DNA of 33,368 nucleotides. It comes from Candidatus Eiseniibacteriota bacterium (GTDB taxonomy: Bacteria > Eisenbacteria > RBG-16-71-46). The stretch covers positions 1 through 33,368 of the forward strand of contig JANLWX010000071.1 in the NCBI GenBank assembly GCA_031364845.1. Reading direction: 5' to 3'. Below the pieces are notes generated by a model. The model was not told the origin of the DNA. It did not search any database and saw nothing but the letters and a program-made list of their open reading frames with translations. A program made the position numbers and the translations under genes. Each line of letters starts with the position of its first letter. The stretch's first letter is position 1. Shown here piece by piece: positions 1 through 14,118 of this stretch.

Positions 1-1614
1 GAAGTGATCGATGTACGCCCACTCCACACCGTACAGCTCGTCGACCTTGCACACGCCGCGCGCGTGTCCGTAGTACTTGCGCACGAGGTCGAGGTAGAGC
101 TTCGACATGTTCTCGCCGGTCAGCGTCTCGCCCTTCTCGGCGCGCTCGTGGATCGCCAGCTCGAACTCCGCGAACATCGTCTGGCGGAACAACGTGCCGC
201 GCAGGTTGTCGAGGTAGCTGCCGAGCAGGAACAACCGCGTGTCGCGATCCGGCTTGCGATTCAGCATGTCGTGCAGCAGCAGGTTCTCGTTGAGCGTCGA
301 GGCGACTTCGGCGACAAACGTGGCGTAGTCGCTCGACACATACGGCTGGTGCTTGTACGAGAAGTACGTGTGCATCGAGTGGCCGGACTCGTGCGCGAGT
401 GTGGAAACTTCCTCGTAGAGCCCGGTGAAGTTCTGCAGCTGATACGGATGCACGTCGTAGGCGCCGGTGCTGTAGGCGCCGCCCGACTTGCCGGTGGTCG
501 GCATCCAGTCGACCCAGCCGTTCGTGAACGACTTGCCGAGCACCTCGCCGTACTCCTTGCCGAGCGGCTTCACGGCTGCGAGCGTCAACTCCATCGCCTG
601 CTCCGGTGTGTACTTGAGATCCACGCTCTTGATGATCGGCGCGTAAAGGTCTTCGTAGCGCAGCGTGTCGACGGCCATCATGCGCTTGCGCAGCTTGAGG
701 TAGCGGTGGAGCGTCGGCAGGTTCGCGTTCACGTCGGCGATCAGCTGCGTGTAGACGCGCGAGGGAACGTTGTCGCGGAACAGCGATGCTTCGAGGCCGC
801 TCTTGAACTTGTGGACGTCCTTGTTGAAGATCGACGTGCGCATCTCGGAATTGAGCGAGGCGCCCAGCGTGCCCTGGAACTCGCGATGCTTGCCCCAGAA
901 CGCCTGGAACACCTTGATGCGATCGGCGCGATTGGGCAGCGCGCGATACTGGGTGTAGGCGGCCTGGTCGATGCGGATCTTCTCGCCGGTCGAGAGTGTG
1001 ACTTCGGGATACGGCAGTTCCGCGTTAGTGAGCTGGCCGCGGATGGTGCCCGGCGCGCCGCCCATCAGGCCGGCCTGTGCGGCGATCTTTTCCTCTTCCG
1101 GCGTCAGCGTGTGCGGCGCGCGCCGCAGGATGTCGTCGAGATACATTCGGTACTTCGTGAGCCGCGAATCGCCGCTCACGAACCCGCGCACGCGATCGGA
1201 GCCGATCTTCAGGATCTCGGGGCGCACGTAGGCGGTGGACGAACGGAACTCCACCAGCAGCTGATCGGCGGACTCGCGCATCGCGACGTTCTGGCTGATG
1301 CGATTGTCTTCATCGCTCAGCATGCTCGAGTAGGTGTAGAGCCGCGACAGGTTCTTGTCGAGATCCATGATCGCATCGAGCGCGCGCGCGAGGGTTCCCG
1401 ACGAATCGCCGAGATGGCCCTGGAACTTGGCGAGGCTCGGGATGCGCTTGGACAGCGCCGTCTTCTCCGCCTGCCACGCCGGTACCGACTTGTAGAGATC
1501 GGTGAGATCCCACCGGTACTTGGCCGGAATCTCCGAGCGCTCGGCGCTGGTCGCGGGAATCGCGACGGCGAGCATCAGAAGCGTGAGCAGAAGGCGTGCG
1601 CGCGGCATCGACAT
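1..1614 (-). CDS. pepF: Oligoendopeptidase F (peptidase M3B) with N-terminal signal peptide; 3' end lies outside the window
   Basis: Not in the ORF track because the stop is outside the window. Manual translation from ATG 1614 gives MSMPRARLLLTLLMLAVAIPATSAERSEIPAKYRWDLTDLY. The zinc motif LAHESGHSMH is present (HExxH at 379-393), and EWAYIDHF lies at the window edge. SD-like GAGAGG upstream. Confidence 0.93.
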   Translation of the reverse strand, partial: MSMPRARLLLTLLMLAVAIPATSAERSEIPAKYRWDLTDLYKSVPAWQAEKTALSKRIPSLAKFQGHLGDSSGTLARALDAIMDLDKNLSRLYTYSSMLSDEDNRISQNVAMRESADQLLVEFRSSTAYVRPEILKIGSDRVRGFVSGDSRLTKYRMYLDDILRRAPHTLTPEEEKIAAQAGLMGGAPGTIRGQLTNAELPYPEVTLSTGEKIRIDQAAYTQYRALPNRADRIKVFQAFWGKHREFQGTLGASLNSEMRTSIFNKDVHKFKSGLEASLFRDNVPSRVYTQLIADVNANLPTLHRYLKLRKRMMAVDTLRYEDLYAPIIKSVDLKYTPEQAMELTLAAVKPLGKEYGEVLGKSFTNGWVDWMPTTGKSGGAYSTGAYDVHPYQLQNFTGLYEEVSTLAHESGHSMHTYFSYKHQPYVSSDYATFVAEVASTLNENLLLHDMLNRKPDRDTRLFLLGSYLDNLRGTLFRQTMFAEFELAIHERAEKGETLTGENMSKLYLDLVRKYYGHARGVCKVDELYGVEWAYIDHF

Positions 1615-1687
1615 GGAAATCCTCTCAGGTCGGGTGGAGCGTCACCGCGCGATGGGGCGCGGAACGGCGTCGTAATCGGGACGCCGC

Positions 1688-1696
1688 ATGCTATCA
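1688..1696 (-). promoter_or_regulatory. Putative extended -10 promoter (TGaTAGCAT) for pepF
   Basis: Minus strand reads TGATAGCAT about 75 nt upstream of the pepF ATG. Motif match only. Confidence 0.4.
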
Positions 1697-1782
1697 CCGC
1701 GCTGAGGTTGGCGGCGACAGGCCCCGCACCAGCGCGCCGGAAGCGGTGGCGAGCGGGGGAGTGCATGCGGAATGGCCGGTCC

Positions 1783-2784
1783 TCAACGCCCCATCATCAT
1801 GTGGATCTGCCACAGGTCGCGGCTGTGCGTGCGCAGGAACGGCAGAATCGCGAGCCGCCCGGCGGGGCCGATCGAGCGTTCGAGAAACCTCAGCTCCTCG
1901 AAGTTTGATTGGACCTGGGGATCGACCGGCAGCGCGATGCCGGCGGAGCGTGCGATCAGAATGCCCTTCGCGCGCAACGAGAGTTCGAGCTGGATCTGGA
2001 GCAGGCACAGGATGTCCGCGACGACGGCAGGCGGAAAGCGGTGCTTCAATGAATCGAGATAGCGTCCCACACGCGTGCCCGAGATCTCGCCGTTCATGAT
2101 CAGATCGAGCAGCTCGGATTCGGTATCGAGGCTCATGCCGAGCCACTCGCGGGTCGCGCGTTCGCTGCGCGTGAACACCACGATCAGCAACAACGGCATC
2201 GTCACCAGCATGATCGCGATCGTGATCAGCGGCTGGAATGTGAGGTGGTTGAAGGCCGCATGCGCGACGACGGCGATGGCGAGGCCGGGGAGGAACCACG
2301 CGAGCGCCTTCGAGCGATGGCGATCGGTGAGGTCCTTGGAGACCACGGCGGCGATCGCCGTGGTGCAACCGTGCATCACCGCCGTTCCGAGACCACGCAC
2401 GATCCACAGCAGCGGGTTCGGATCTCCGATGGCGCGCATGTAGTAGAGGTTCTCGACCAGCGCGAAGCCGGCGCCGATCGCGAAGCCGAGGATGCCCGCG
2501 TCCACCAGGAAGCCGGCGCGATCGCGCCGGATGATCACGATCACCCACGCCAGCTTGAGCGATTCTTCGATGATCGGCGCGATGACGCCTTTGAGCGCAG
2601 CCGGTGGAGCATGCGCGTAACGCAGAGCAAGAAGGTTGGCGCCGTAGGCGACGAGCGCCGCGATCGCGCCTAGGGTCAGCGCGCGCAGCACCGTGCGGCG
2701 CGCGACCAACTGATAGCGATCCATCATCAGCAGCGCGCCGAGGAACAGCAGCACCGGCAGCAGCCCGGCGGCGAACGGAATCAC
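1783..2784 (-). CDS. prsW: PrsW-family intramembrane glutamic protease with C-terminal soluble extension
   Basis: Motifs APIIEESLK, GFALVENLYY, MHGCTT and AHAAFNH lie in a multi-TM protein. The likely GTG start (2784) overlaps the anti-sigma stop (GTGA). The upstream part of the 600-aa ORF overlaps the anti-sigma gene in another frame. Confidence 0.9.
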   Translation of the reverse strand: MIPFAAGLLPVLLFLGALLMMDRYQLVARRTVLRALTLGAIAALVAYGANLLALRYAHAPPAALKGVIAPIIEESLKLAWVIVIIRRDRAGFLVDAGILGFAIGAGFALVENLYYMRAIGDPNPLLWIVRGLGTAVMHGCTTAIAAVVSKDLTDRHRSKALAWFLPGLAIAVVAHAAFNHLTFQPLITIAIMLVTMPLLLIVVFTRSERATREWLGMSLDTESELLDLIMNGEISGTRVGRYLDSLKHRFPPAVVADILCLLQIQLELSLRAKGILIARSAGIALPVDPQVQSNFEELRFLERSIGPAGRLAILPFLRTHSRDLWQIHMMMGR

Positions 2785-3533
2785 TGTGAGCTTCGGTTCA
2801 ACTCGCCGCGGCTCGTCATTCCACCCGAGCGCAGGGTGACGCGCATCGGACGCTTCGCCGCCTTCGCACCTTTGAGCAGCACTGTGCAGCGCATCTCGCC
2901 TGCGAATTCGAGCCCGATCGTTCCGGTCGTGAGCGCGACGCGCAGCGGCCGCCCCTCGATCTCGCGCACCGACTCTGCGGTGAGCGTGGCGTCGTGCTCG
3001 ATCACGATCTCTGCGGTGCCACCGGCGTTGGTCTCCATGCGCGCCGCGATGCCCTTCGGCATCGCGACGAGTTCGATCATGAGCGTCGAGGTGCCCGCGG
3101 CGAGCGACAGCCGGTCGATGGTTGCGGTGCCGGGTTCGGGCATCATCGTTCCGCTCGTGGGCAGGTTGCGCAGGTCGCCGCGGTTTGCGACAAGCGGCCA
3201 GATCAGGATGCCCGCGACCGCACCGATCGCGAACGCCGAAGCGAGCCGCAGTCCGATCGCGCGCCCGATGCGTTCCCGCGCACCTTCGAAGTGACCCGTT
3301 GCCGACGACTGACGATCGGCGTGAACCGCGCGCATGATCGCGGGCTTGAGATCGAGCGGAGGTTCCACGTTGCGGACTCGCGCGAGCGTCGTGTGCGTGG
3401 TTTCGAAATCCAGCCACCGTTCGCGCGCCGCGGGATCCGAAGCGAGGCGCGCATCGAGTGTCGCGCGCTGCTGCGGTGTCGCGTTGCCGTCGAGCACGGC
3501 GTGGGCGAGTGCGTCGAACGCTTCGTCGATCAT
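2781..3533 (-). CDS. Membrane-anchored anti-sigma factor
   Basis: N-terminal anti-sigma-like helices (AVLDGNATPQQRATLDARLASDPAARERW), one TM segment (LASAFAIGAVAGILIWPLV) and a C-terminal extracytoplasmic domain. ATGA overlap with the ECF sigma stop. Confidence 0.8.
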   Translation of the reverse strand: MIDEAFDALAHAVLDGNATPQQRATLDARLASDPAARERWLDFETTHTTLARVRNVEPPLDLKPAIMRAVHADRQSSATGHFEGARERIGRAIGLRLASAFAIGAVAGILIWPLVANRGDLRNLPTSGTMMPEPGTATIDRLSLAAGTSTLMIELVAMPKGIAARMETNAGGTAEIVIEHDATLTAESVREIEGRPLRVALTTGTIGLEFAGEMRCTVLLKGAKAAKRPMRVTLRSGGMTSRGELNRSSQ

Positions 3534-4075
3534 GCGGAGGTGATCCCTCTCTGGCGCAGCCGGGCGCCGAGCAACTGGCGCGCACTGTAGAGCCGCGACT
3601 TCACCGTCTTCTCGGGGATCGACAGAAGCTCTGCGATCTCCTGATAGGCCAGCTGTTGAAAGTGACGCAACACGATCACCTCGCGGTATTCGGGAGTCAG
3701 CTCCATCAACGCGCCCTGAATGTGTTGTGTGATCTCGCTTGCGTGCGCTTCGTCATCGGGCTCGGCGTCCGATGATGGCATCCGTTCATCCAGCTCCGAG
3801 TGTTTGCGACGGCGCTGCACGAAGTTCAACGACTCGTTGAGCATGATCCGGTAAACCCAGCTGTAGAAGCGATGTCGGGGATCGTAGCTCGCGAGGTTGC
3901 GCCACACTTTGAGAAACACCGTCTGCGTGAGGTCGCGCGCATCCTCGCCACTGCCCGTCATCCGAAGCGCCAGGTTGTAGAGCACGCCCTGGTACTCGTC
4001 GACCAGCGCTTCGAACGCCCGGGCGTCGCCATTCTGAGCTCTGCGAATCACGGCCAGCTCTGCGTCGTCGGACAT
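3530..4075 (-). CDS. ECF RNA polymerase sigma-70 factor (RpoE/SigW-like)
   Basis: Region 2 (DARDLTQTVFLKVWRNLASYD, FYSWVYRIMLN) and region 4 (LTPEYREVIVLRHFQQLAYQEIAELLSIPEKTVKSRLYSAR). Start MSDDAEL at 4075 with GGAG upstream. Confidence 0.95.
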   Translation of the reverse strand: MSDDAELAVIRRAQNGDARAFEALVDEYQGVLYNLALRMTGSGEDARDLTQTVFLKVWRNLASYDPRHRFYSWVYRIMLNESLNFVQRRRKHSELDERMPSSDAEPDDEAHASEITQHIQGALMELTPEYREVIVLRHFQQLAYQEIAELLSIPEKTVKSRLYSARQLLGARLRQRGITSA

Positions 4076-4133
4076 CAATACACGGCTCCCGGGCCGAGGT
4101 TGGCGAAGATCTGAGGCAGGTCGGACATCGGCT

Positions 4134-4418
4134 CTATTCGATCTGAAGCAAACGGTCGAGACCCGCGTAGGCAAACACGTTACGCACCCGCGGCTTCATG
4201 TTGGTGAGGCGGAACGAGTGCCCGGCGGCGGTGAGCCGTTTGTAGGTCTCGATCAGTACCGCGATCCCGGCGCTCGAGATGTACTCGAGGTCCGCGAAGT
4301 CGGCGACCAGCGGATGATCGAAGCCGCGAAACACCTGGTAGGCGCGCTCCGACTGTGCCGCATCGAGCCGGCCGATCAGCCGGATGTTGCCTGCGGCGCC
4401 GATCTCGACGTCGAACAT
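4134..4418 (-). CDS. STAS-domain anti-anti-sigma factor (SpoIIAA/RsbV-like)
   Basis: GRLDA and DFADLEYISSAGIAVLI with the conserved phospho-acceptor Ser. ATG 4418 overlaps the upstream TGA (TGATG). Confidence 0.9.
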   Translation of the reverse strand: MFDVEIGAAGNIRLIGRLDAAQSERAYQVFRGFDHPLVADFADLEYISSAGIAVLIETYKRLTAAGHSFRLTNMKPRVRNVFAYAGLDRLLQIE

Positions 4419-4819
4419 CAGACGAGCCTCGTGGTCACGGTGACGATGCTCGTGCGATCGCGATAGGCGTAGCGGAAACTCTCGGCGATGCGTTTCACCA
4501 GATGAATGCCGAGCCCGCCCGGGCGACGTTGTTCGAGCGGTGCTTCGATGTCGACCTCGGGTGAGCGCGTCACGTCCCACTCATCGACGCCGAAATCGCG
4601 CAGCTCGATCGTGAGCCGCGCGGGATCCGCAGCGAGCCCGATCGCGATATCCTCATGGCCTCCGCCGTACTTCACCATGTTGGTGAACACTTCCTCGATC
4701 ACGAGATCCGCATCGTGCGCATGTTCCGCATCGATCCGGCGCTCGGCCAGGAATGCGTGAACGAACGCGACGATCGACTCGAGCGAAGCCACGGTCCTTG
4801 GAAAGCGGCGCATCTCCAT
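4418..4819 (-). CDS. RsbW/SpoIIAB-like anti-sigma kinase (HATPase_c_2)
   Basis: N-box EEVFTNMVKYG, G1 IELRDFG, G2 RRPGGLGIHLVKRI. Start MEMRR at 4819. Confidence 0.9.
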   Translation of the reverse strand: MEMRRFPRTVASLESIVAFVHAFLAERRIDAEHAHDADLVIEEVFTNMVKYGGGHEDIAIGLAADPARLTIELRDFGVDEWDVTRSPEVDIEAPLEQRRPGGLGIHLVKRIAESFRYAYRDRTSIVTVTTRLV

Positions 4820-4825
4820 CGCCGG

Positions 4826-4854
4826 AAGGTAGGGGCTCGAAGCGCGCGATTCAA
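4826..4854 (-). promoter_or_regulatory. Sigma70-type promoter TTGAAT-N17-TACCTT; predicted start at the ATG (leaderless)
   Basis: -35 at 4854-4849 and -10 at 4831-4826, then 6 nt to ATG 4819. No SD. Confidence 0.6.
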
Positions 4855-4901
4855 TGCGGAACGCGACGCGCGCCGCGAGCCCTGCGCGGCGCCGCCGCCC
4901 G

Positions 4902-4930
4902 TTGCGAGCCGAAGGGGACCCCGCTAGCAT
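4902..4930 (+). promoter_or_regulatory. Sigma70-type promoter TTGCGA-N17-TAGCAT for the DUF853 operon
   Basis: -35 at 4902-4907 and -10 at 4925-4930 with an exact 17-nt spacer. Divergent from the rsbW-like promoter. Confidence 0.55.
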
Positions 4931-4986
4931 GGGACGCTGTTCCCCGCGTATCGCGCCGTCGCTCACCCGCACGAGGTTCTCCGCCC

Positions 4987-6537
4987 ATGGATCCGAAGTT
5001 CATCGAGGCCGTTCGAGTCACCTATCCCGCCGCGGTCGCTTCGATCACGGTCGGCGCTCCGGTGCTCGGAACCGAATGCCATCCCGAGCCGCTCGTCTCG
5101 ATTCCGATCGCGATGATGAACCGCCACGGGCTCGTGGCCGGCGCCACCGGCACCGGAAAGACCCGCACGTTGCAGTTGCTCGCGGAACAACTGTCGGCTG
5201 CGGGCGTGCCGGTATTCCTGTCGGACGTGAAGGGCGACGTCGCGGGCATCACGATGCCGGGCGAAGCGAGTGACCGCGTGAACGCGCGCGCCACGGAGAC
5301 GGGCTACGCGTGGAAGCCGCTCGGATGTCCGGTCGAGTTCCTGAGTCTGTCCGGCAAGCGCGGCGCTCAATTGCGCGCGACGGTGTCGTCGTTCGGCCCG
5401 TTGCTGCTCGCCAAGGTGCTGGGCTTGAACGCGACGCAGACCAGCGTGCTCACGATGGTGTTCAAGTATTGCGACGATCAGAAGCTGCTGCTGCTCGACT
5501 TCAGCGACTTGCGCGCGGTGTTGCAGCATCTGAGCGGCGATGGGTCCGAGGCGCTCAAGGAATACGGCGGCATGTCCAAGACCACGGTCGGGGTGCTGCT
5601 GCGCGAGATGGTGGAACTCGAGTCGCAAGGGGCCGGCGCATTCTTCGGCGAGCCCGAGTTCGACCTCGACGACCTGATCCAGACCGAACGCGACGGCCGC
5701 GGACTCATCTCGGTGCTGGAACTCGCCGACGTGCAGGACCGTCCCGCGTTGTCGTCGACGTTCATGATGTGGCTGCTCGCGCGGCTCTACGCCGAGTTGC
5801 CCGAAGTGGGCGACATCGACAAGCCCAAGCTCGTGTTCTTCTTTGATGAAGCGCATCTGCTGTTCGACGAAGCGAGCAAGGACTTCTTGAACGAGGTCGA
5901 AAAGGTCGTGCGCCTGATTCGCTCGAAGGGTGTGGGCGTGTTCTTCGTGACCCAGAACCCGAAGGACGTGCCCGCGGACATCCTGGGCCAGCTCGGCCAC
6001 CGCGTGCAGCACGCGTTGCGCGCGTTCACGGCCGACGACGAGAAGGCGCTCAAGGCGGCGGCGCGCACGTATCCCAAGACCGAGTTCTACGATGTCGAGG
6101 AAGTGCTGACCTCGCTCGGCATCGGCGAAGCGTTCGTGACCGTGCTGTCGCCCAAGGGCGTGCCGACGCCGCCGTTCATCACGCGCGTCGTGCCGCCGGC
6201 CGCGCGCATGGGGCCGCTCACCGACGGCGAGATGGCGCAGCGCATCGGGGCGTCCGAGCAGGTCAAGCACTACGCCGAGGCGATCGATCGCAACAGCGCG
6301 CGTGAGATGCTCGCCGCGCGCGCGGGAGCGGAGACGGCCGCCGAGGCGCCGGCGGCCGGCGCTGCCCCCGCGCCGCGCTCGAGCAAGGAGCAGGACGCCG
6401 CGCCCAACATCGGCGACATGCTGAACTCGCCGCTCGCGCGCACGATCGCGGGCACGCTGACGCGCGGACTCATGGGCGCGCTGCTTCCGCGCCGCACGAC
6501 GACGCGGCGCTCGACCGCGCGCCGGCGCATCTTCTGA
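4987..6537 (+). CDS. DUF853/YjgR-family HerA-like P-loop ATPase
   Basis: MMNRHGLVAGATGTGKT (Walker A), DVKGDV, PKLVFFFDEAHLLF (Walker B), RLIRSKGVGVFFVTQNP, QLGHRVQHALRAFT. Start MDPKF at 4987. Confidence 0.93.
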   Translation: MDPKFIEAVRVTYPAAVASITVGAPVLGTECHPEPLVSIPIAMMNRHGLVAGATGTGKTRTLQLLAEQLSAAGVPVFLSDVKGDVAGITMPGEASDRVNARATETGYAWKPLGCPVEFLSLSGKRGAQLRATVSSFGPLLLAKVLGLNATQTSVLTMVFKYCDDQKLLLLDFSDLRAVLQHLSGDGSEALKEYGGMSKTTVGVLLREMVELESQGAGAFFGEPEFDLDDLIQTERDGRGLISVLELADVQDRPALSSTFMMWLLARLYAELPEVGDIDKPKLVFFFDEAHLLFDEASKDFLNEVEKVVRLIRSKGVGVFFVTQNPKDVPADILGQLGHRVQHALRAFTADDEKALKAAARTYPKTEFYDVEEVLTSLGIGEAFVTVLSPKGVPTPPFITRVVPPAARMGPLTDGEMAQRIGASEQVKHYAEAIDRNSAREMLAARAGAETAAEAPAAGAAPAPRSSKEQDAAPNIGDMLNSPLARTIAGTLTRGLMGALLPRRTTTRRSTARRRIF

Positions 6538-6560
6538 ATCGCGAAGACGAGCCCGGGCGC

Positions 6561-8663
6561 ATGAAGACCCGTCCTCGCGCGGACGCCGGCTCGGCGATGT
6601 CACGCGCCCGTGGCCGGCGCGCGTGGCCCGGGTTGCTCTTGTTGGGACTCGCGGTCGCCGCGGCAATCGCGCTCTACATCCCCGCACTCGGGACCTCGTT
6701 CTTCGCCGACGACTATTTATTCCTGGATCAGGTGCGGCAGAAGTCGCTGATCGCAGCACTCGGCACTCCGGACCCGCTGAGCAACTTCTATCGCCCGATT
6801 TCGCGACAGCTCTACTTCTGGACCGTGGCCGGAACCAGCAACGAATCCGCGCGCGTGTTCCACATTGTCGGGCTCGCGTGGTTCTCGGTGCTGCTCGCGC
6901 TTTTGTTCGGACTCGCGCGCCGGATCGCGGGCACCTATGCCGCGACCATCGCAACGGTGTTCGTGGCACTCCACTACACCGCCGATGTTCCGATCCGCTG
7001 GGCGTGCGGCAGCCAGGAGCTGCTCTCGGTGAGCGGCGCGCTCGCCGCGTTGTGGCTCCACCTGAGCGGACGGCGCGGACTCGCGGCGGTGGCCATGGCG
7101 TTCGCCGCTTTGTCCAAGGAAGTGGTGCTGCTCACTCCCTTGATCGCGGTGGTCGCCGACCGGCGCACCGGTGAAGCGTGGATCGCTTCGGCGAAGCGCG
7201 CGTGGCCGCTCGCGATCGGTGTGGCGGTGTGGGTCGCCGTGTGGGTGTTCGCGCCGCACACGCGCCAATCGGCCGGCACCGAGATCGAGCTGAATCCGTG
7301 GAGCCCGATCGCCACCTACATTCACCTGATCCAGGTGACGTTCGGCGCCGAAGCGCGCATGAACGAACTGTGGCGCCTGCCGACCGTCGGTCCGCCGCTC
7401 ATTCCGCTGGCGCTCGCGATCGCCGCGATCTTCCTGGCCGGAGCGGGCGGACGGCTGCGCGGTCTCGAGCTGAACCGCGCCGATGGAGAGAAGGTGCCCG
7501 ATGCCACACCCGCGCGCCGTCATGCGATCGTGACCGGCATCGTGTGGGCGCTGTGCGCGACGCTGCCGGTGGTCGCGGTCGCCGTGCTGTGGAGTGCCTA
7601 CTACTTCCTGTTCGCGATGTGCGGTGTGGCGATCGCGCTCGGCGCGTGGCTCAGCCTGCGCTCGCGCTGGTGGGCGGTGGCCGCGATCGGCTTGCTCGCG
7701 TGGGGCTCGCACAGTGCGCGTCACGTTCAGGAGTTCGCCACCCCGCGCAGCCCGTGGACCGCGATGTCGCACATCAACAAGTTCTACATCGAGCGCGCGA
7801 CGCGCTACTGCGAGCGCTATCTTGAGGACCTGATGCGCATGCAGCCCAAGGTTCCCAAGAGCAGCACGCTGTTCTTCGCGGGTCTCAAAGGCAACGTCGC
7901 GTTCCAGGTCGCCAACGGTCCGCTGATGCGCTGGGCCTATCGCGACTCCAGCGTGCGCTCGTACTACCTCAACAACTTCTCGCTCGAGAAAGCCCGGCGC
8001 GGACCGCACTTCGTCTACATCGGCTCGCGTGATTCGCTGCGCGAGATGGAGCGCGACGCGGAGATGTACGCGCGCATCGCCTACACCTTGCTCGTGAACG
8101 AATCGCCGGCCGGGGCACGCGATGCGCTGGTGCTCGACCTCGAACGCCGCCCCGACCATGCGCGATCGCGCTACTGGATGGCGTGGAGCCAGATGGCGCT
8201 CGGGGACATCGAAGCCGCGCGCGCCGAGCTGCAGCGCGCCGGTTACGATCCTTCGCCCGGACCCGCGGCCGAGATCGCCGAAGCGCGCGCGATCGCCCAG
8301 CGCGGCGACATCGCCGGCGCGCTCGCGATCGTGCGACCCGCTGTGCGGAGCCATGCGCTCGATCCCGCGGCCCACGCGCTGCTCGCCGACCTGCTGCTGA
8401 TCGCGAACCCCGAAGATCCCGCCGGGCCGATGGAAGCCTTCGCCGTGCGCGCGCTCGCGCCCAACGACGCGCTCTCGTGGCGGCGCTGGGGTTCGATCCA
8501 GCTCTATCGCAAGCGTTACCTGGAGGCGCTCGCGTCATTCGACCGCTACTTCAAACTCGCGGGGCTCCCGGGGCAGGGCGACGTCGAAGCGAAGAACTGG
8601 GTCGCCGAGATCAAGCGCGCGCTGCCCGGCGGCGACATCGCGCCCGAAGGACTGCGCGAGTAG
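6561..8663 (+). CDS. Polytopic membrane protein, GT-C/TMTC-like glycosyltransferase with C-terminal TPR repeats
   Basis: FFADDY after the first TM, NFYRPISR, ALSKE, many TM segments, and TPR-like helices in the last ~190 aa. Alternative start at 6597. Confidence 0.65.
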   Translation: MKTRPRADAGSAMSRARGRRAWPGLLLLGLAVAAAIALYIPALGTSFFADDYLFLDQVRQKSLIAALGTPDPLSNFYRPISRQLYFWTVAGTSNESARVFHIVGLAWFSVLLALLFGLARRIAGTYAATIATVFVALHYTADVPIRWACGSQELLSVSGALAALWLHLSGRRGLAAVAMAFAALSKEVVLLTPLIAVVADRRTGEAWIASAKRAWPLAIGVAVWVAVWVFAPHTRQSAGTEIELNPWSPIATYIHLIQVTFGAEARMNELWRLPTVGPPLIPLALAIAAIFLAGAGGRLRGLELNRADGEKVPDATPARRHAIVTGIVWALCATLPVVAVAVLWSAYYFLFAMCGVAIALGAWLSLRSRWWAVAAIGLLAWGSHSARHVQEFATPRSPWTAMSHINKFYIERATRYCERYLEDLMRMQPKVPKSSTLFFAGLKGNVAFQVANGPLMRWAYRDSSVRSYYLNNFSLEKARRGPHFVYIGSRDSLREMERDAEMYARIAYTLLVNESPAGARDALVLDLERRPDHARSRYWMAWSQMALGDIEAARAELQRAGYDPSPGPAAEIAEARAIAQRGDIAGALAIVRPAVRSHALDPAAHALLADLLLIANPEDPAGPMEAFAVRALAPNDALSWRRWGSIQLYRKRYLEALASFDRYFKLAGLPGQGDVEAKNWVAEIKRALPGGDIAPEGLRE

Positions 8664-8666
8664 GTT

Positions 8667-9875
8667 GTGACCAAGATCCCGAACGTGATGCGCGCTGTGC
8701 TGCGCGCTGTGGCGCTGGCGCTGATCGCCCTCTACGTGCTCACGTTCGCGCTGAAGAACGTGGCGCTGCAGTGGGACTTCAAGTCGTACATGCTCGCCGC
8801 GCGTGCCGCGTTCGCGGGACTCGACCCGTATCAGATCGATTCCTTGAGTGCGATCGCGCAGAAGCCGGTGTCGATTCCGTTCCTCTATCCGCCGATCGCG
8901 CTGGCGCCGTTCGTGACGATGGTTCCGCTGTCGCCCGAGATCGCGGCGATGGCATGGATCGCACTCAAGTGCTGGATCCTGCTCGCCCTGATCGTCGCCT
9001 GGAAACGCGGGATCGTGCCCGAGGCCGGCGTGCTCGCGATGGCGATCGTCGCGGTGTTCGGATGGAACGCCGCGGCACTCGCCGATCTCAGATCCGGCAA
9101 CGTCGCCCTGATCGAATGCGGGCTGCTGTGGGCTGCGTTGTTCTGCTTCATCGCCGAACGTCGCGGCGCGTTTGCCGCGCTCGTCGTCGGCGCTGCAGTT
9201 TTCAAGGTGATGCCCGCGGCGTATCTGCTGTTGCTGCTCGTGCCCACGCCACGCCATCGACCTGAACCAGCGCGGTTGTTGTGGGCGGCCGCCGCGTGCG
9301 TCGTGTTGATCGGAGCGCCGCTTCTGATCGGGCCCGCGACGCGATGGGAGGGCTTTGGGTTGAACATCCCGTGGGCGTATGCCCTCGGTGACTCGAACCC
9401 GAGCGCGTTCGCGCTCGCCGTGACGGTGGCCGGTGCGTTCGGAGTGACGGGGGAATCGATGAAGCCCGTGGCCGCAGGCATCTGGATGGCGTACGTCATC
9501 GTGCTCATCGCGGTGAGCGTGCCCTATCTCAAGGACGCTTGGCGCGCGAAGGATGCGCGACGCTGGGTCGTGATCGCGGTCGTTCTCGACCTGCTGATCG
9601 CGCCGCGTCCCATGTCCTACGGCTTCGTGCGGCTCGGGCCCGCACCGTTGTTCTTCGGCTGCGCCCTGCTGCCGCGGCCGGGGTGGGGAGTGCTCGTCGC
9701 GCTGATCTTCGCCGCGCAAGGGCTCGCGCTCAGTGCGCATCAACGGATCGACACCACCCTCGTCACATTTTCGCCGTTGCTGCTGACGCTGGGACTGTGG
9801 CTGATCGTCGTGCTACGGCGTTCCCGCGAGTTTGACCCCCGCCCCGGCACTGGTGTAAACACCTTGTCCCGCTAG
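8667..9875 (+). CDS. Glycosyltransferase family 87 / DUF2029 membrane protein
   Basis: WDFKSYMLAARA...GLDPY, PFLYPP, LRSGNVALI, AVFKVMPA; highly hydrophobic. Confidence 0.8.
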   Translation: MTKIPNVMRAVLRAVALALIALYVLTFALKNVALQWDFKSYMLAARAAFAGLDPYQIDSLSAIAQKPVSIPFLYPPIALAPFVTMVPLSPEIAAMAWIALKCWILLALIVAWKRGIVPEAGVLAMAIVAVFGWNAAALADLRSGNVALIECGLLWAALFCFIAERRGAFAALVVGAAVFKVMPAAYLLLLLVPTPRHRPEPARLLWAAAACVVLIGAPLLIGPATRWEGFGLNIPWAYALGDSNPSAFALAVTVAGAFGVTGESMKPVAAGIWMAYVIVLIAVSVPYLKDAWRAKDARRWVVIAVVLDLLIAPRPMSYGFVRLGPAPLFFGCALLPRPGWGVLVALIFAAQGLALSAHQRIDTTLVTFSPLLLTLGLWLIVVLRRSREFDPRPGTGVNTLSR

Positions 9876-9877
9876 GT

Positions 9878-9953
9878 GGGGCTGTAGCTCAGTTGGGAGA
9901 GCGCTTGACTGGCAGTCAAGAGGTCGACGGTTCGATCCCGTTCAGCTCCACCA
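9878..9953 (+). tRNA. tRNA-Ala (anticodon GGC)
   Basis: 76-nt cloverleaf GGGGCTGTAGCTCAG...CTTGA-CT-GGC-AG-TCAAG...GGTTCGATCCC...CAGCTCCACCA, with the G3:U70 alanine identity pair and encoded CCA. Confidence 0.98.
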
Positions 9954-10021
9954 TATGTCTTTAAGGCCCCCGGTGGCCGACAGATCCGGCCGAGCTGAAT
10001 TGCGCCTGATCGCCGCCATGG

Positions 10022-10051
10022 TTGGCGCGCGAGGCGCCTTGGGCTTATTCT
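10022..10051 (+). promoter_or_regulatory. Putative sigma70 promoter TTGGCG-N18-TATTCT for the ankyrin gene
   Basis: -35 at 10022-10027 and -10 at 10046-10051, immediately before the structured leader. Confidence 0.4.
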
Positions 10052-10058
10052 CCCCGCA

Positions 10059-10185
10059 GGCGTTCGCAGGACGCCGCCCGTCCGCGGGAAGGGCTGCGCC
10101 CACCTGTCGCTCTCACTCGCCGTAGCCATACCGACCTTTCTTCAGCCCATGTGCGGACGCGGGCGCTCGTTGAAGGAGGTCGTCT
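10059..10185 (+). promoter_or_regulatory. Structured 5' leader with mutually exclusive helices, including an anti-SD helix (candidate cis-regulatory RNA)
   Basis: 10075-10085 pairs with 10153-10165; 10091-10096 with 10143-10148; alternatively 10092-10098 with 10121-10127; anti-SD 10132-10144 pairs with 10171-10182 over AAGGAGGT. Confidence 0.5.
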
Positions 10186-11703
10186 GTGCTCACGCCGAAC
10201 ACACCCCGCGTTCCCCGCAACCTCGAACAGCAGCGCAAGCTCGCCAAGGATCTGATCCGCGCAGCGCGTGATGGCGACGCGGCCGCACGCGCGCGCATCC
10301 GAGCGGTTTGCCACGATTTCGCCGCACCACCCGAAGGGCTCAAGCTCGCCGATGCGCAGCTCACTCTGGCGCGCGAAGCCGGTTTCGAGTCGTGGCCGAA
10401 GCTCGTGGCGGCGCTTCAGCATCGCGATGTCGAAGCATTCCTCGACGCGGTTCGGGCCGGCGACGTTTCCGCAACGCAACAACTCCTCGCGTCAGAGCAT
10501 GTCGCCAAGCGGATCAACGAGCCGATGTTCGACTTCGGCCAGCGCGCGGCGCACATCGCCGCGAAGAATGAGCCCTTGATCGAGCTCTTGATCGCTGCCG
10601 GTGCCGACGTGAACAGGAAGAGCGACTGGGGGAATGGCCCCTACACCGTGCTCGACAACACCGACGAGCACACGGCGCGACTTCTTCTCAGGCACGGCGC
10701 GAAACTGACGCCAAACGTGGCCGCGCGCCTGGGTTGGCTCGATGAATTGCGATCGCTCGTGGACGCGGATGGCTCGCTCGTTCACGCGCGTGGAGGAGAC
10801 GGTCAGCAGCCGCTCCACGAGGCGAGGACCGTCGCGATTGCCGACTTCCTGCTCGACCGGGGCGCGGATATCGATGTGGGCTGCATCGATCACCGGTCCA
10901 CGCCGGCGCAGTATGCGCTGGTCGATCGTCCGGAGGTGTGCCGGCTTCTGCTCGAGCGCGGGGCCACGCCGGACATCTTCATGGGGGCCCGCCTCGGCGA
11001 CATCGCGCTCGCAACCCGCTTGATGGAAACCGATCCAGCCTGCGTCGCCGCTCGTATCAACCAGCCCGGATATCCGCCGGTTCCTCCTTCGAATATCTAC
11101 TGCTGGTCGCTCGGATTCGGCATGTCTCCGCACGAGGTCGCCTTGAAGTTCGATCATCGCGAGGTCCACGACCTGCTCGCGGCGCGAAGCCCGGCACGGG
11201 TTCGGTTCGTGAACGCGGTCTCGATGGCGAACGAGTCCGCGTCTCGGGCGATTCTCGCTGAAGATCCATCGCTCATGGCTTCACTTGCAGGCGAAGAGCA
11301 CGCGCATCTGGCGCTCGCCATCTTCTACGAGCGTTTCGACGCGGCTGCGCTGATGCTCCGCCTCGGCTTCGATCCGGCCGCACCCGGCATCGACGGCGGG
11401 ACCGCTCTGCATGCGGCGTGCTGGGTGGGCAGCGTGCGGATGGTCGAACAACTCCTTGCGCGCGGCGGCGTGCCGCTCGATGCCCGAGATCCGACGCACC
11501 AGAGCACGCCGCTCGGGTGGGCCGCGTTCGGATCCGTGCATCGCCGGGCGACAGGGGCGCATTACCCGGCGGTCGCGGACCGACTGGTGGCGGCTGGCGC
11601 GGACATCAATACCGTCGGGAACGGCGCGGGTCGCACATTGCTGCAAATGGCCGACGGCAATCCGGCGATGCAGGAGGCCCTGCGCCGCCACGGCGTCGCG
11701 TAA
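10186..11703 (+). CDS. Ankyrin-repeat protein with N-terminal LEQQRKLAKDL...LADAQLTLAREAGFESWPKL helical domain
   Basis: Ankyrin motifs (GQRAAHIAA...LIAAGADVN, GQQPLHEA...LLDRGADID, GTALHAACWVG, STPLGWA). GTG start with a strong AAGGAGGT SD. Confidence 0.9.
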   Translation: MLTPNTPRVPRNLEQQRKLAKDLIRAARDGDAAARARIRAVCHDFAAPPEGLKLADAQLTLAREAGFESWPKLVAALQHRDVEAFLDAVRAGDVSATQQLLASEHVAKRINEPMFDFGQRAAHIAAKNEPLIELLIAAGADVNRKSDWGNGPYTVLDNTDEHTARLLLRHGAKLTPNVAARLGWLDELRSLVDADGSLVHARGGDGQQPLHEARTVAIADFLLDRGADIDVGCIDHRSTPAQYALVDRPEVCRLLLERGATPDIFMGARLGDIALATRLMETDPACVAARINQPGYPPVPPSNIYCWSLGFGMSPHEVALKFDHREVHDLLAARSPARVRFVNAVSMANESASRAILAEDPSLMASLAGEEHAHLALAIFYERFDAAALMLRLGFDPAAPGIDGGTALHAACWVGSVRMVEQLLARGGVPLDARDPTHQSTPLGWAAFGSVHRRATGAHYPAVADRLVAAGADINTVGNGAGRTLLQMADGNPAMQEALRRHGVA

Positions 11704-11871: not shown

Positions 11872-14114
11872 ATGACGACGGACACCCTGGTCGGCAAAAC
11901 CGTTTCGCACTACCGGATCACGCGCCCTCTGGGCGCCGGTGGCATGGGCGTCGTCTACGAGGCGGAAGACACGCGACTCGGTCGCCGGATCGCGGTCAAA
12001 TTCCTCTTCGAAGAGGCGCAGCGCGATGCGTCGATCCTCGAACGTTTTCAGCGCGAGGCGCGAGCGGCTTCGGCCCTGAACCATCCCGGGATCTGCACCG
12101 TGCATTCGATCGAGCAGCACGAGGGGCAGCACTTCATCGTGATGGAGTTGCTCGAGGGCGAGACTCTCGCCAGGCGTATCGGGCGCCAGCCGCTCGAACT
12201 GGACGAGATCCTCGATCTCGGCGTCCAGATTGCCGACGCGCTCGAGTCGGCGCATTCCAAGGGGATCGTTCACCGTGACCTGAAGCCCGTGAATCTCATC
12301 CTCAATGCGCGCGGGCAGATCAAGATCCTCGACTTCGGGCTGGCGAAGATCAGCGCGGTGACGAACTACTCGAATGAGCCGGACTCGGGGTCGCATCTCG
12401 AGACTTCGGTGAAGCGCGGTGACCTCACCGTGGCGGGAACGGTCATGGGGACGGTCCACTACATGTCGCCCGAGCAGGCGCGCGGGCTTCCGACCGATGC
12501 CCGCACCGATCTGTTCTCGCTGGGCGCGGTGCTCTACCAGATGGCGACCGGCTTGATGCCGTTTCAGGGCGACACTCAGGCGGTGGTGTTCGAGGCGATC
12601 TTGAACCGCGACCCGCGTCCGGTGTCTGAGGTCAATCCGGCGATGCCGCACGCACTCGAGCAGATTCTGGGGAAGGCGCTCGAGAAGGATCGCAGCCTCC
12701 GCTGCCAGACCGCTACCGAGCTGAAGACCGACCTGCTTCGATTGAAGCGCGATTTCGATTCGGGTCAGCGCCGCGCGGCCGAGATGTCCGACTCGAAGAG
12801 CCGATCCGACGCTTCGGCCGAACGGTCGGTCGCGGTCCTTTACTTCGAGAACCTGAGTGGTGCCAAGGAGGACGAGTACTTTCGCGACGGGATCACCGAA
12901 GACATCATCACCGAGCTGTCGAAGATCAAAGGGCTGAACATCTTCTCGCGCACGACGGTCCTGGCCTATCGAGACAAGCAGGTGACGGCAGTCGAGATCG
13001 GCAAGCAGATTCGAGCCGGATGCGTGCTGACCGGAAGCCTGCGGCGCGCGGGGGAGCGGCTGCGGATCAACGCGCAGCTCATCGACACCCAAACGGACTT
13101 TCCGCTCTGGTCGGAGCGCTACGATCGTGAGATGAAAGATGTATTCGAGGTGCAGGATGAGATCGCGCGCAAGATCGCCGAGGCGCTGCGCGTGACGCTC
13201 ACGCCGCAGGAACAACGTGAGCTCGCCGCCAAGCCGACCGAGAACCTCAAGGCGTACGATCTCTACTTGAAGGGCAAGAGCTACGCGCGGCGGCTGACGC
13301 GGCAGGATTCGGAGTTCGCGCTCCAGATGTACGAGAACGCGGTGGCCGAGGATCCGAGCTTCGTCCTGGCCTACGCGGCAATCGCCAATGTGTGCGCGAT
13401 GTACCACTACTGCTACGACAAGGGTGCCACCTGGATCGATCGCGCGCGGGCGGCTTCCGAGAAAGCCGTTGCCCTGCAGCCCGAACTGCCCGAGGCCAAG
13501 GTGGCGCAGGCGTGGATCCTGTATGCCCGGGGCGAGTACGAGGATGCCGGACGAATCGTCAGCGCGGTGATCGCGCTCCAGGTCGAGACCGAAGGCGCCT
13601 ACTATCTTCTGCTCCGATCGCTGTTCGCATCGGGCAGGTATCAGGAGATCGCCAACATCGCCGAGGAGGCGCTCGAAGCGAGTGGCAGCGACTACAACGT
13701 CTACATCCCGATCAGCAACGCACTCGGCGCGCTGGGGAAACAGGAGGCGTTGCGAAACATGCGCCACCGGAAGATTCAGGTGTTCGAGGCGCATCTGCGG
13801 GACGTGCCCGAGGACGCGCGAGCGCGCATCCTGCTCGCCGGCGACTACGCAGACGAGGGACGCGAAGAAGACGCCGTGCGCGAAGCCAACCTCGCGATCG
13901 TGTTGCGGCCCAACGAGGCGACGGTGCTCTACAACACGGCCTGCACGTTTTGCGCTCTGAATCGCAAGGCTGACGCTCTCGACGCAATGTTGAAGGCGTG
14001 GCGTGCCGGTTTCCGCGACGCCGACTGGGCACGGCGCGATCCCGACCTCGCAATCCTCCACGGCGAACCGGAGTTCGAGAAGCATTACCCCGAAAGGGAC
14101 ACGGGGCACGGACG

Positions 14115-14118
<4 letters not shown>
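11872..14118 (+). CDS. Cytoplasmic Hanks-type Ser/Thr protein kinase with TolB-like domain and TPR repeats (copy 1)
   Basis: LGAGGMGVVY, IAVK, HRDLKPVN, DFGLAK, YMSPEQ; then SVAVLYFENLS...DGITEDII and TPRs; no TM segment. Start MTTDTLVGK matches copy 2. Confidence 0.95.

Follow-up and report, generated by a model that had tools for sequence, protein, structure and literature searches.

What is the stretch of DNA that separates a tRNA gene from an ankyrin-repeat gene at this locus, and does it control the gene behind it? In the window, by which we mean the whole 33,368 nucleotides that were analysed, the leader (10059-10185, forward strand) is flanked by a tRNA (9878-9950, anticodon GGC as taken from the alignment) and by a 505-aa ORF with a GTG start (10186-11703, forward strand), which encodes a basic four-helix N-terminal domain, here called ND (approximately residues 8-81; 10186-10434, forward strand), followed by ankyrin repeats. 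It had been proposed from the letters alone that the leader is a translational switch of no recognised class which alternates between two incompatible folds, that ND might be its ligand, and that the two would form a portable module. When checked in the letters of the window, the sequences and coordinates of this sequence-only reading were all found to be correct, namely TATTCT (10046-10051), CGCCCGTCCGC (10075-10085), GGGCTG (10091-10096), CAGCCC (10143-10148), the anti-SD strand (10132-10144), the SD arm (10171-10182) and the GTG at 10186. The predicted promoter consists of a -35-like hexamer, TTGGCG (10022-10027, forward strand), and the -10-like TATTCT on the same strand. Upstream of the 123 aligned leaders described below, 58 of 105 TTG[AC] matches fall at -39 to -35 from the first helix, P0, and 102 of 190 -10-like matches at -15 to -12; those of the window lie at -38 and -14, so that TATTCT is placed where the homologous hexamers cluster. 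This clustering suggests that transcription would begin at or just before P0. A strict promoter and terminator scan of the window stretch called nothing, and no conserved upstream ORF was found (AUG occurs in 55 of the 123 leaders and in no conserved column). The gene lies just 3' of tRNA-Ala(GGC), the pair spanning 9878-11703 of the window, and the neighbours on either side (4753-9875 and 11872-14118) include a HerA-like ATPase, a TPR membrane protein, a GT87 glycosyltransferase and a Ser/Thr kinase with TPRs, none of which has a link to the leader.

As judged by comparison of homologous sequences, the leader is a real, widespread, structured and apparently undescribed cis-regulatory element, in which a conserved and complex 5' UTR fold appears to overlap the expression platform, the general mark of a riboswitch. 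The suspicion that it belongs to no catalogued class was borne out, as Rfam 15 at gathering threshold returned only the tRNA in the window, no leader match in 20 homologous loci at E <= 5, and only tRNAs in 20 further homologous loci. A single likeness, to Ms_AS-8 (RF02466; 16.7 bits and E 0.5 against a cut-off of 48 bits), was treated as chance because it is weak and absent from the 40 homologous loci; nor is the leader among the Ms_AS-8 matches of the window's genome. Ms_AS-8 itself is named in print by two papers, in each as a list entry and no more. A search of the open literature found no description of the leader, and none of the motif surveys listed contains either 'ankyrin' or 'glyoxalase'. 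By term search the motif was absent from the main texts of PMC11109978, PMC8632094 and PMC5737381; it was also absent from one supplementary file of PMC8632094 and eight of PMC2864571, and the supplements of PMC5737381 and PMC11109978 could hold it.

The first 80 residues of the protein were matched in 25 of 151 genomes of its own phylum, a tally that includes the G015 locus, which is also part of the ND seed profile, and a near-identical core was present upstream in 23 of the 28 own-phylum loci. Used as a DNA pattern, the 5' core was found at no fewer than 120 loci, and the total was estimated from 5 of the 64 parts of the collection at about 1,900 stretches. Among the matches listed, the records are labelled Acidobacteriota, Gemmatimonadota, Actinomycetota (Streptomyces, Nonomuraea), Rhizobium, Ensifer, Cerasicoccus, Isosphaerales, Limnocylindrales, Rhodothermales and Ca. 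Eisenbacteria. With a covariance model (E <= 0.01), 14 of 141, 4 of 141 and 28 of 101 genomes were positive in three further samples, with up to five copies per genome; in the window's own genome the leader is a single copy and no second was found. Viral contigs yielded no pattern match and no confirmed relative. Seven fetched model matches below 30 bits were rejected as chance, as they had no ND behind them and those inspected lacked the 3' hairpin or lay in coding sequence.

Taken alone, the window leader folds no better than its shuffles (z = 0.17), and its helices were therefore judged by homologues only. For this a structure-blind alignment of 123 leaders was used (about 87 effective at 80% identity), from which partial, over-long and near-duplicate leaders had been excluded; 88 of its rows were pattern-selected, and the pattern fixes part of the 5' core. 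A model of seven helices has 88.0% of its cells paired in this alignment compared with 82.9% in shuffles, two-sided change in 29 of 36 pairs compared with 17.5, and a score of 0.226 compared with 0.144 in shuffles and at most 0.115 when slid, these being comparisons that ignore kinship and are not probabilities. By corrected mutual information, pairs of the model hold ranks 1, 2, 3, 4, 6, 11, 12 and 13 of 7,699, while the near-invariant pairs rank low. Covariation was thus looked for upstream of the homologues and is present, supporting P0, P1, P1a, P2, K, P3 and P4, of which P0, P1, P1a, P2 and P4 had no place in the sequence-only reading.

All of these helices lie on the forward strand. P0 pairs 10059-10063 with 10071-10075 (paired in 91.6% of cells, with two-sided changes numbering 24 at a single pair; mutual information rank 6 of 7,699), and its loop contains the 5' strand of P1, giving an H-type pseudoknot. 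P1 itself (10066-10070 with 10103-10107; 83.6% paired; ranks 3, 12 and 26) closes a three-way junction made up of P1a (CC 10077-10078 with GG 10086-10087; 99.6% paired), the unpaired RMA (10088-10090), P2 (10091-10094 with 10098-10101; 98.2% paired; ranks 1, 2 and 11) and A10102, and the junction bases CGC, RMA and A are invariant or nearly so. Within the 7-nt loop of P1a lies K5, GUCCGC (10080-10085), the 5' strand of a kissing helix, K, of 6 bp, whose other strand K3, GCGGAC (10153-10158), is in the loop of the P4 hairpin (10145-10164; GCCC 10145-10148 with GGGC 10161-10164; 90.7% paired; ranks 4 and 13). K is paired in 98.6% of the cells, and the linker between the two domains (10108-10131) is variable, measuring 14-38 nt in homologues with no conserved sequence or pairing. 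The stem of P4 runs on into P3, in which the anti-SD strand (10132-10144) pairs with the SD arm (10171-10182) containing AAGGAGGU at 10173-10180; P3 is paired in 74.5% of cells, with two-sided change in 10 of 10 pairs. This predicted burial of the SD, which had been read as the OFF pairing, holds across the alignment, since the duplex of each anti-SD with its own SD (-14.5 kcal/mol) is stronger than that with the SDs of other leaders (-10.5) or shuffled ones (-8.1), and 48 of the 123 anti-SDs rank their own SD within the best 5% of partners. In 45 held-out leaders, the two helices that the covariance model cannot fit were preserved, K being 100% paired with all six pairs changed on both sides and P0 94.4% paired. 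The covarying helices are, on this comparative evidence, mutually compatible and form one set that includes the 5' pseudoknot, the kissing helix and the SD-burying hairpin, and from this compatibility it would follow that all of them can be formed at once.

The leader is closely tied to ND. Among the pattern matches listed, at least 120, a broadened ND profile places ND directly downstream in 112 of the 116 that were usable; the remaining 8 of 120 comprise four at a contig edge and four broken genes, with an early stop, a deletion, a frameshift or a disrupted 3' half. A newly fetched set of 36 covariance-model matches at 40 bits or more, a subset of all those listed, has ND behind 33, and the three exceptions are a gene with ND deleted, a contig end and a truncated leader. 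A constant position upstream of the gene of its candidate binder is what is expected of an autogenous operator, and in neither the pattern set nor the model set was the leader found before an intact gene without ND. Conversely, a leader precedes 46 of 54 ND genes found through the protein, two of the 46 being partial; 38, of which many are training rows, reach at least 15 bits with nhmmer, where random controls score no higher than 3.9 bits, and the model added eight (E <= 0.05). Duplicates, an internal repeat, a wrong-frame match, a start-cut gene, the G015 locus and four weak protein matches had been dropped before this count, and as the four weak matches have no leader the floor is 46 of 58. 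The eight genes without a leader by both models include several with an intact ND, and a loss of basic residues is not consistent among them (two of six, by eye). Ankyrin repeats are the cargo in 55 of 65 scanned proteins, others being LRR, beta-lactamase, APH, DUF1835, TIGR03067 and regions of no family, and no neighbouring gene recurs from lineage to lineage, the largest cluster covering 5 of 116 loci. It is thus ND, and not the ankyrin part, that the leader accompanies, and this speaks for the portable leader/domain module that had been suggested. Five loci (L004, L022, L199, L213 and L253) are natural deletion mutants, in which only the 3' half of the leader remains, a 5' stub is fused to the RBS, ND is deleted or the leader is truncated, and they may be useful as such.

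What kind of domain is ND? A Pfam scan of the window protein gave ankyrin matches only, with none in ND, and the matches from NCBIfam and PADLOC were all either below cut-off or in the ankyrin region. ND is predicted to form four helices (pLDDT 76.7), carries a charge of +3.6 in the first 80 residues compared with -2.3 per 80 residues in the rest of the protein, and is marked by three conserved basic positions, residues 17, 21 and 63 being K or R in 97-98% of 62 rows. No solved relative was found by sequence or by fold (best structural Z 4.1), Foldseek gave no match at E <= 0.001, both being weak tests for so small a helical domain, and the ESM Atlas returned only unnamed clusters under 0.9 or nothing. 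The family is large, with 10,776 clusters at 50% identity (E <= 0.001). Profile comparison indicates homology between ND and the N-terminal part of Pfam Glyoxalase_8 (PF20066), with an hhalign probability of 97.0 and E 1.1e-10 over 53 columns, and PF20066 was matched by 13 of the 62 ND rows at E <= 0.1. Domains of the PF20066 type match positions 6-57 of PRK05973; compared with Glyoxalase_8, the ND of the window has an inserted helix, and this ND has no Pfam match of its own. Many records probably owe the name 'glyoxalase superfamily protein' to a single fusion partner, and no link of the Glyoxalase_8 N-terminal region to RNA was found in print. ND-type domains also head PRK05973 (annotated as a DNA helicase), Lon substrate-binding proteins and an MvaI/BcnI nuclease (L274, L277). 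In L002, L064, L174, L201 and many other ND matches a second or third, more degenerate copy stands right after the first, which hints at dimeric action. The ND of the window is about 80% identical to proteins labelled Vicinamibacterales or Acidobacteriota and 38-57% identical to homologues of its own phylum, which suggests that the gene was gained horizontally.

Like ND, its Glyoxalase_8 relatives are preceded by a structured leader. Of 251 Pseudomonadota genomes sampled, 22 contain Glyoxalase_8, and 20 of the 23 loci examined, two C-terminal-only matches having been left out, have a sister leader with another core sequence and the same topology (L259-L276, L282 and L283, about 150 nt upstream of the start codons). 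In these a 5' hairpin loop pairs 3' of a conserved GGUGAA, forming a 5' pseudoknot, and a long 3' hairpin, with the SD at its base, carries in its apical loop one of two hexamers that pair with each other. When the 20 were aligned blind, pairing was complete (100%) in the kissing helix, three pairs of which co-vary, and reached 75% in P1. Rfam gave no match at the 20 loci, nor did the covariance model of class I, R1, detect the sister class. The cargoes differ as well (Glyoxalase_7, Lon substrate-binding and no-family regions). What the sister class keeps is the topology and not the junction bases, and a homologous domain accompanied by a sister leader of the same topology is as expected of co-divergence between an RNA and a protein. 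By eye, L196 (ND with a YozE-like domain) and L278 (ND with a HEPN/RES-NTD1-like domain, relatives of which occur in 14 phage records) have a third variant, with complementary CGCCCAC and GUGGGCG segments and an SD hairpin, and the 150 nt upstream of L172 (ND with Glyoxalase) fit neither class and show an SD-pairing hairpin.

We propose that the leader is a portable operator for translational auto-repression whose predicted binder is the gene's own ND, and we give this reading a probability of about one half. We prefer it on two grounds: the leader tracks ND rather than the cargo, and the sister RNAs change their core bases with the ND subfamilies while keeping their shape. In the proposed mechanism the transcribed leader would fold so that the 5' pseudoknot and three-way junction present GUCCGC in a loop, which would dock on GCGGAC in the loop of the 3' hairpin. 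In the absence of the protein this hairpin would breathe and permit a low level of translation; as the protein accumulated, ND might bind the docked complex through its conserved Lys and Arg residues and clamp P4 and P3 shut, limiting further translation. Promoter, leader and ND would then make up a cassette for dosage control that is portable and has been joined to many cargo domains. Several observations count against auto-repression. The leader and ND are adjacent, so that linkage alone would move both together. The 3' hairpin is already strong (median -23.4 kcal/mol on its own; in nested folding models the SD has a mean unpaired probability of 0.18 and opening it costs a median of 8.0 kcal/mol), and extra repression may therefore seem unnecessary, in which case the docked state could be the ON state. 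Finally, there are ND genes without leaders, no covarying ON fold, and no match of ND to a solved RNA-binding fold, although for so small a helical domain this last point says little.

The conserved junction itself can be read in another way, since junction bases conserved over several phyla are also typical of metabolite-binding RNAs, according to PMC5737381. The leader might be a new small-molecule riboswitch in which a metabolite or a toxic compound is recognised by the junction (CGC, RMA and A) and the signal passes through the kissing helix to the SD hairpin. Such a function would suit an RNA that has two pseudoknots and, in several phyla, a three-way junction whose unpaired bases are invariant; the relay would follow the logic described in PMC10327014 for the L5-L13 interaction of cobalamin riboswitches, and several cargoes are detoxification-like (APH, beta-lactamase and a bleomycin-binding-like domain). 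However, in the sets examined the leader never precedes a transporter or an enzyme that has no ND, no metabolite common to the cargoes is evident, and the sister class does without the junction bases despite having the same topology; we regard a riboswitch as unlikely. The tie to ND could also be incidental, if another trans-acting factor or stress (an RNA-binding protein, a nuclease, a small RNA or the state of the ribosome) reads the leader, with ND, the 5' end of the cassette, simply being carried with it. Linkage would account for part of the coupling, the eight leaderless genes among the 54 would be explained, and the default fold, with its SD already buried, must be opened by something. 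Nevertheless, apart from broken genes, the leader is not retained once ND is lost, and sister RNA classes track sister ND subfamilies; this explanation seems to us improbable.

The two-state switch, close to what was first proposed from the letters, places K in an SD-open ON fold that excludes P4 and P3. When the SD was forced open, K appeared in 66 of 123 nested ensembles, and among SD-open folds of this one sequence the ON fold of the sequence-only reading is the most favourable (-42.6 kcal/mol, against -51.1 for the MFE). Nested folding is, however, unable to show K together with P4, and the loop sizes (3-7 + 6 + about 2 nt) would leave room for a kissing complex. The helices particular to the ON fold lack compensatory changes; for example, 27 rows have an A in P2, and the partner is C in all 27. 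From the proposed 11-bp ON helix the GUCCGC/GCGGAC part survives as K, whereas the CGCCC/GGGCG extension is paired in only 53%. The second ON helix, GGGCUG/CAGCCC, is 73.5% paired and does no better in held-out leaders than in shuffles (67.2% against 68.6%), and ON-only pairs hold mutual information ranks from 282 to 6,062 of 7,699. The pairing thought to assist the OFF state, GGCUGCG/CGUAGCC, is specific to the window (own and cross both -3.95, the strength seen in the window being reached in 1 of 123). GGRMAG with the anti-SD, considered as an ON fold, showed no covariation (own -5.72 against cross -5.75), and no covarying SD-open fold was found among the 123 leaders, although an expression platform may work in the absence of an alternative that covaries. 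The claim of two incompatible folds is thus not supported, as the covarying helices are compatible and K can coexist with the SD hairpin, and a switch of this form is quite improbable. A fixed attenuator or 5'-end stabiliser without ligand, or a self-cleaving or processing RNA, would fit the single state that accommodates all conserved helices and the location of P0 at the predicted 5' end, yet neither the two pseudoknots nor the invariant junction bases would be needed if a plain hairpin were to dampen translation, class I has no conserved bases beside K3 and no Rfam ribozyme was matched; we consider such an element very improbable.

A broader proposal can be made, to which we would give somewhat less than even odds: that a superfamily of cassettes exists, comprising a promoter, a double-pseudoknot kissing leader and a small new RNA-binding domain, at the front of thousands of unrelated proteins and with at least two co-diverged RNA classes. 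Were this true, such cassettes would serve ankyrin, LRR, Lon-N, glyoxalase-like, APH, beta-lactamase and DUF1835 cargoes across phyla, and would offer both a new RNA-binding fold and a ready-made orthogonal part for translational feedback. An RNA found in several phyla, with two pseudoknots and a conserved junction, is rarely missing from Rfam, and the strict tie to one unannotated domain names a candidate ligand, reducing the question to a 130-nt RNA and an 80-aa protein. Should ND bind, a large unannotated family would gain a function and the 'glyoxalase superfamily' label would prove to be a fusion artefact; should it not, the leader would be a strong orphan riboswitch candidate, and there would be new biology either way.

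Small helical proteins that bind RNA of this general kind are known. Rop/Rom of ColE1 binds a kissing complex, and the anti-CRISPR-associated Aca2 binds its own leader; no sequence or fold match of either to ND was found, and they may serve as an analogy only. Among regulatory leaders the nearest comparisons are cobalamin riboswitches and the S15 leaders, and the leader belongs to neither. In cobalamin (corrinoid) riboswitches such as btuB and env8, as described in PMC10327014, a loop-loop kiss between the 5' domain and a 3' stem favours an RBS-burying hairpin. Like them, the present leader combines a kissing loop with an RBS hairpin, where the pairing is indicated by covariation and the coupling would be by inference. 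Unlike them, it does not match the Rfam cobalamin model (junction core and B12 box), its 5' domain is about 50 nt with an H-type pseudoknot and three-way junction, the genes downstream are ND fusions rather than B12 transport or metabolism genes, and it is strictly tied to one protein domain. As with S15, for which PMC4684408 describes different RNA structures in rpsO leaders serving homologous proteins, a precedent for several RNA structures within one protein family, the encoded protein would be repressed by its own attachment to a structured part of the transcript; unlike S15, the gene is not ribosomal, and the putative binder is a small domain carried on unrelated cargoes.
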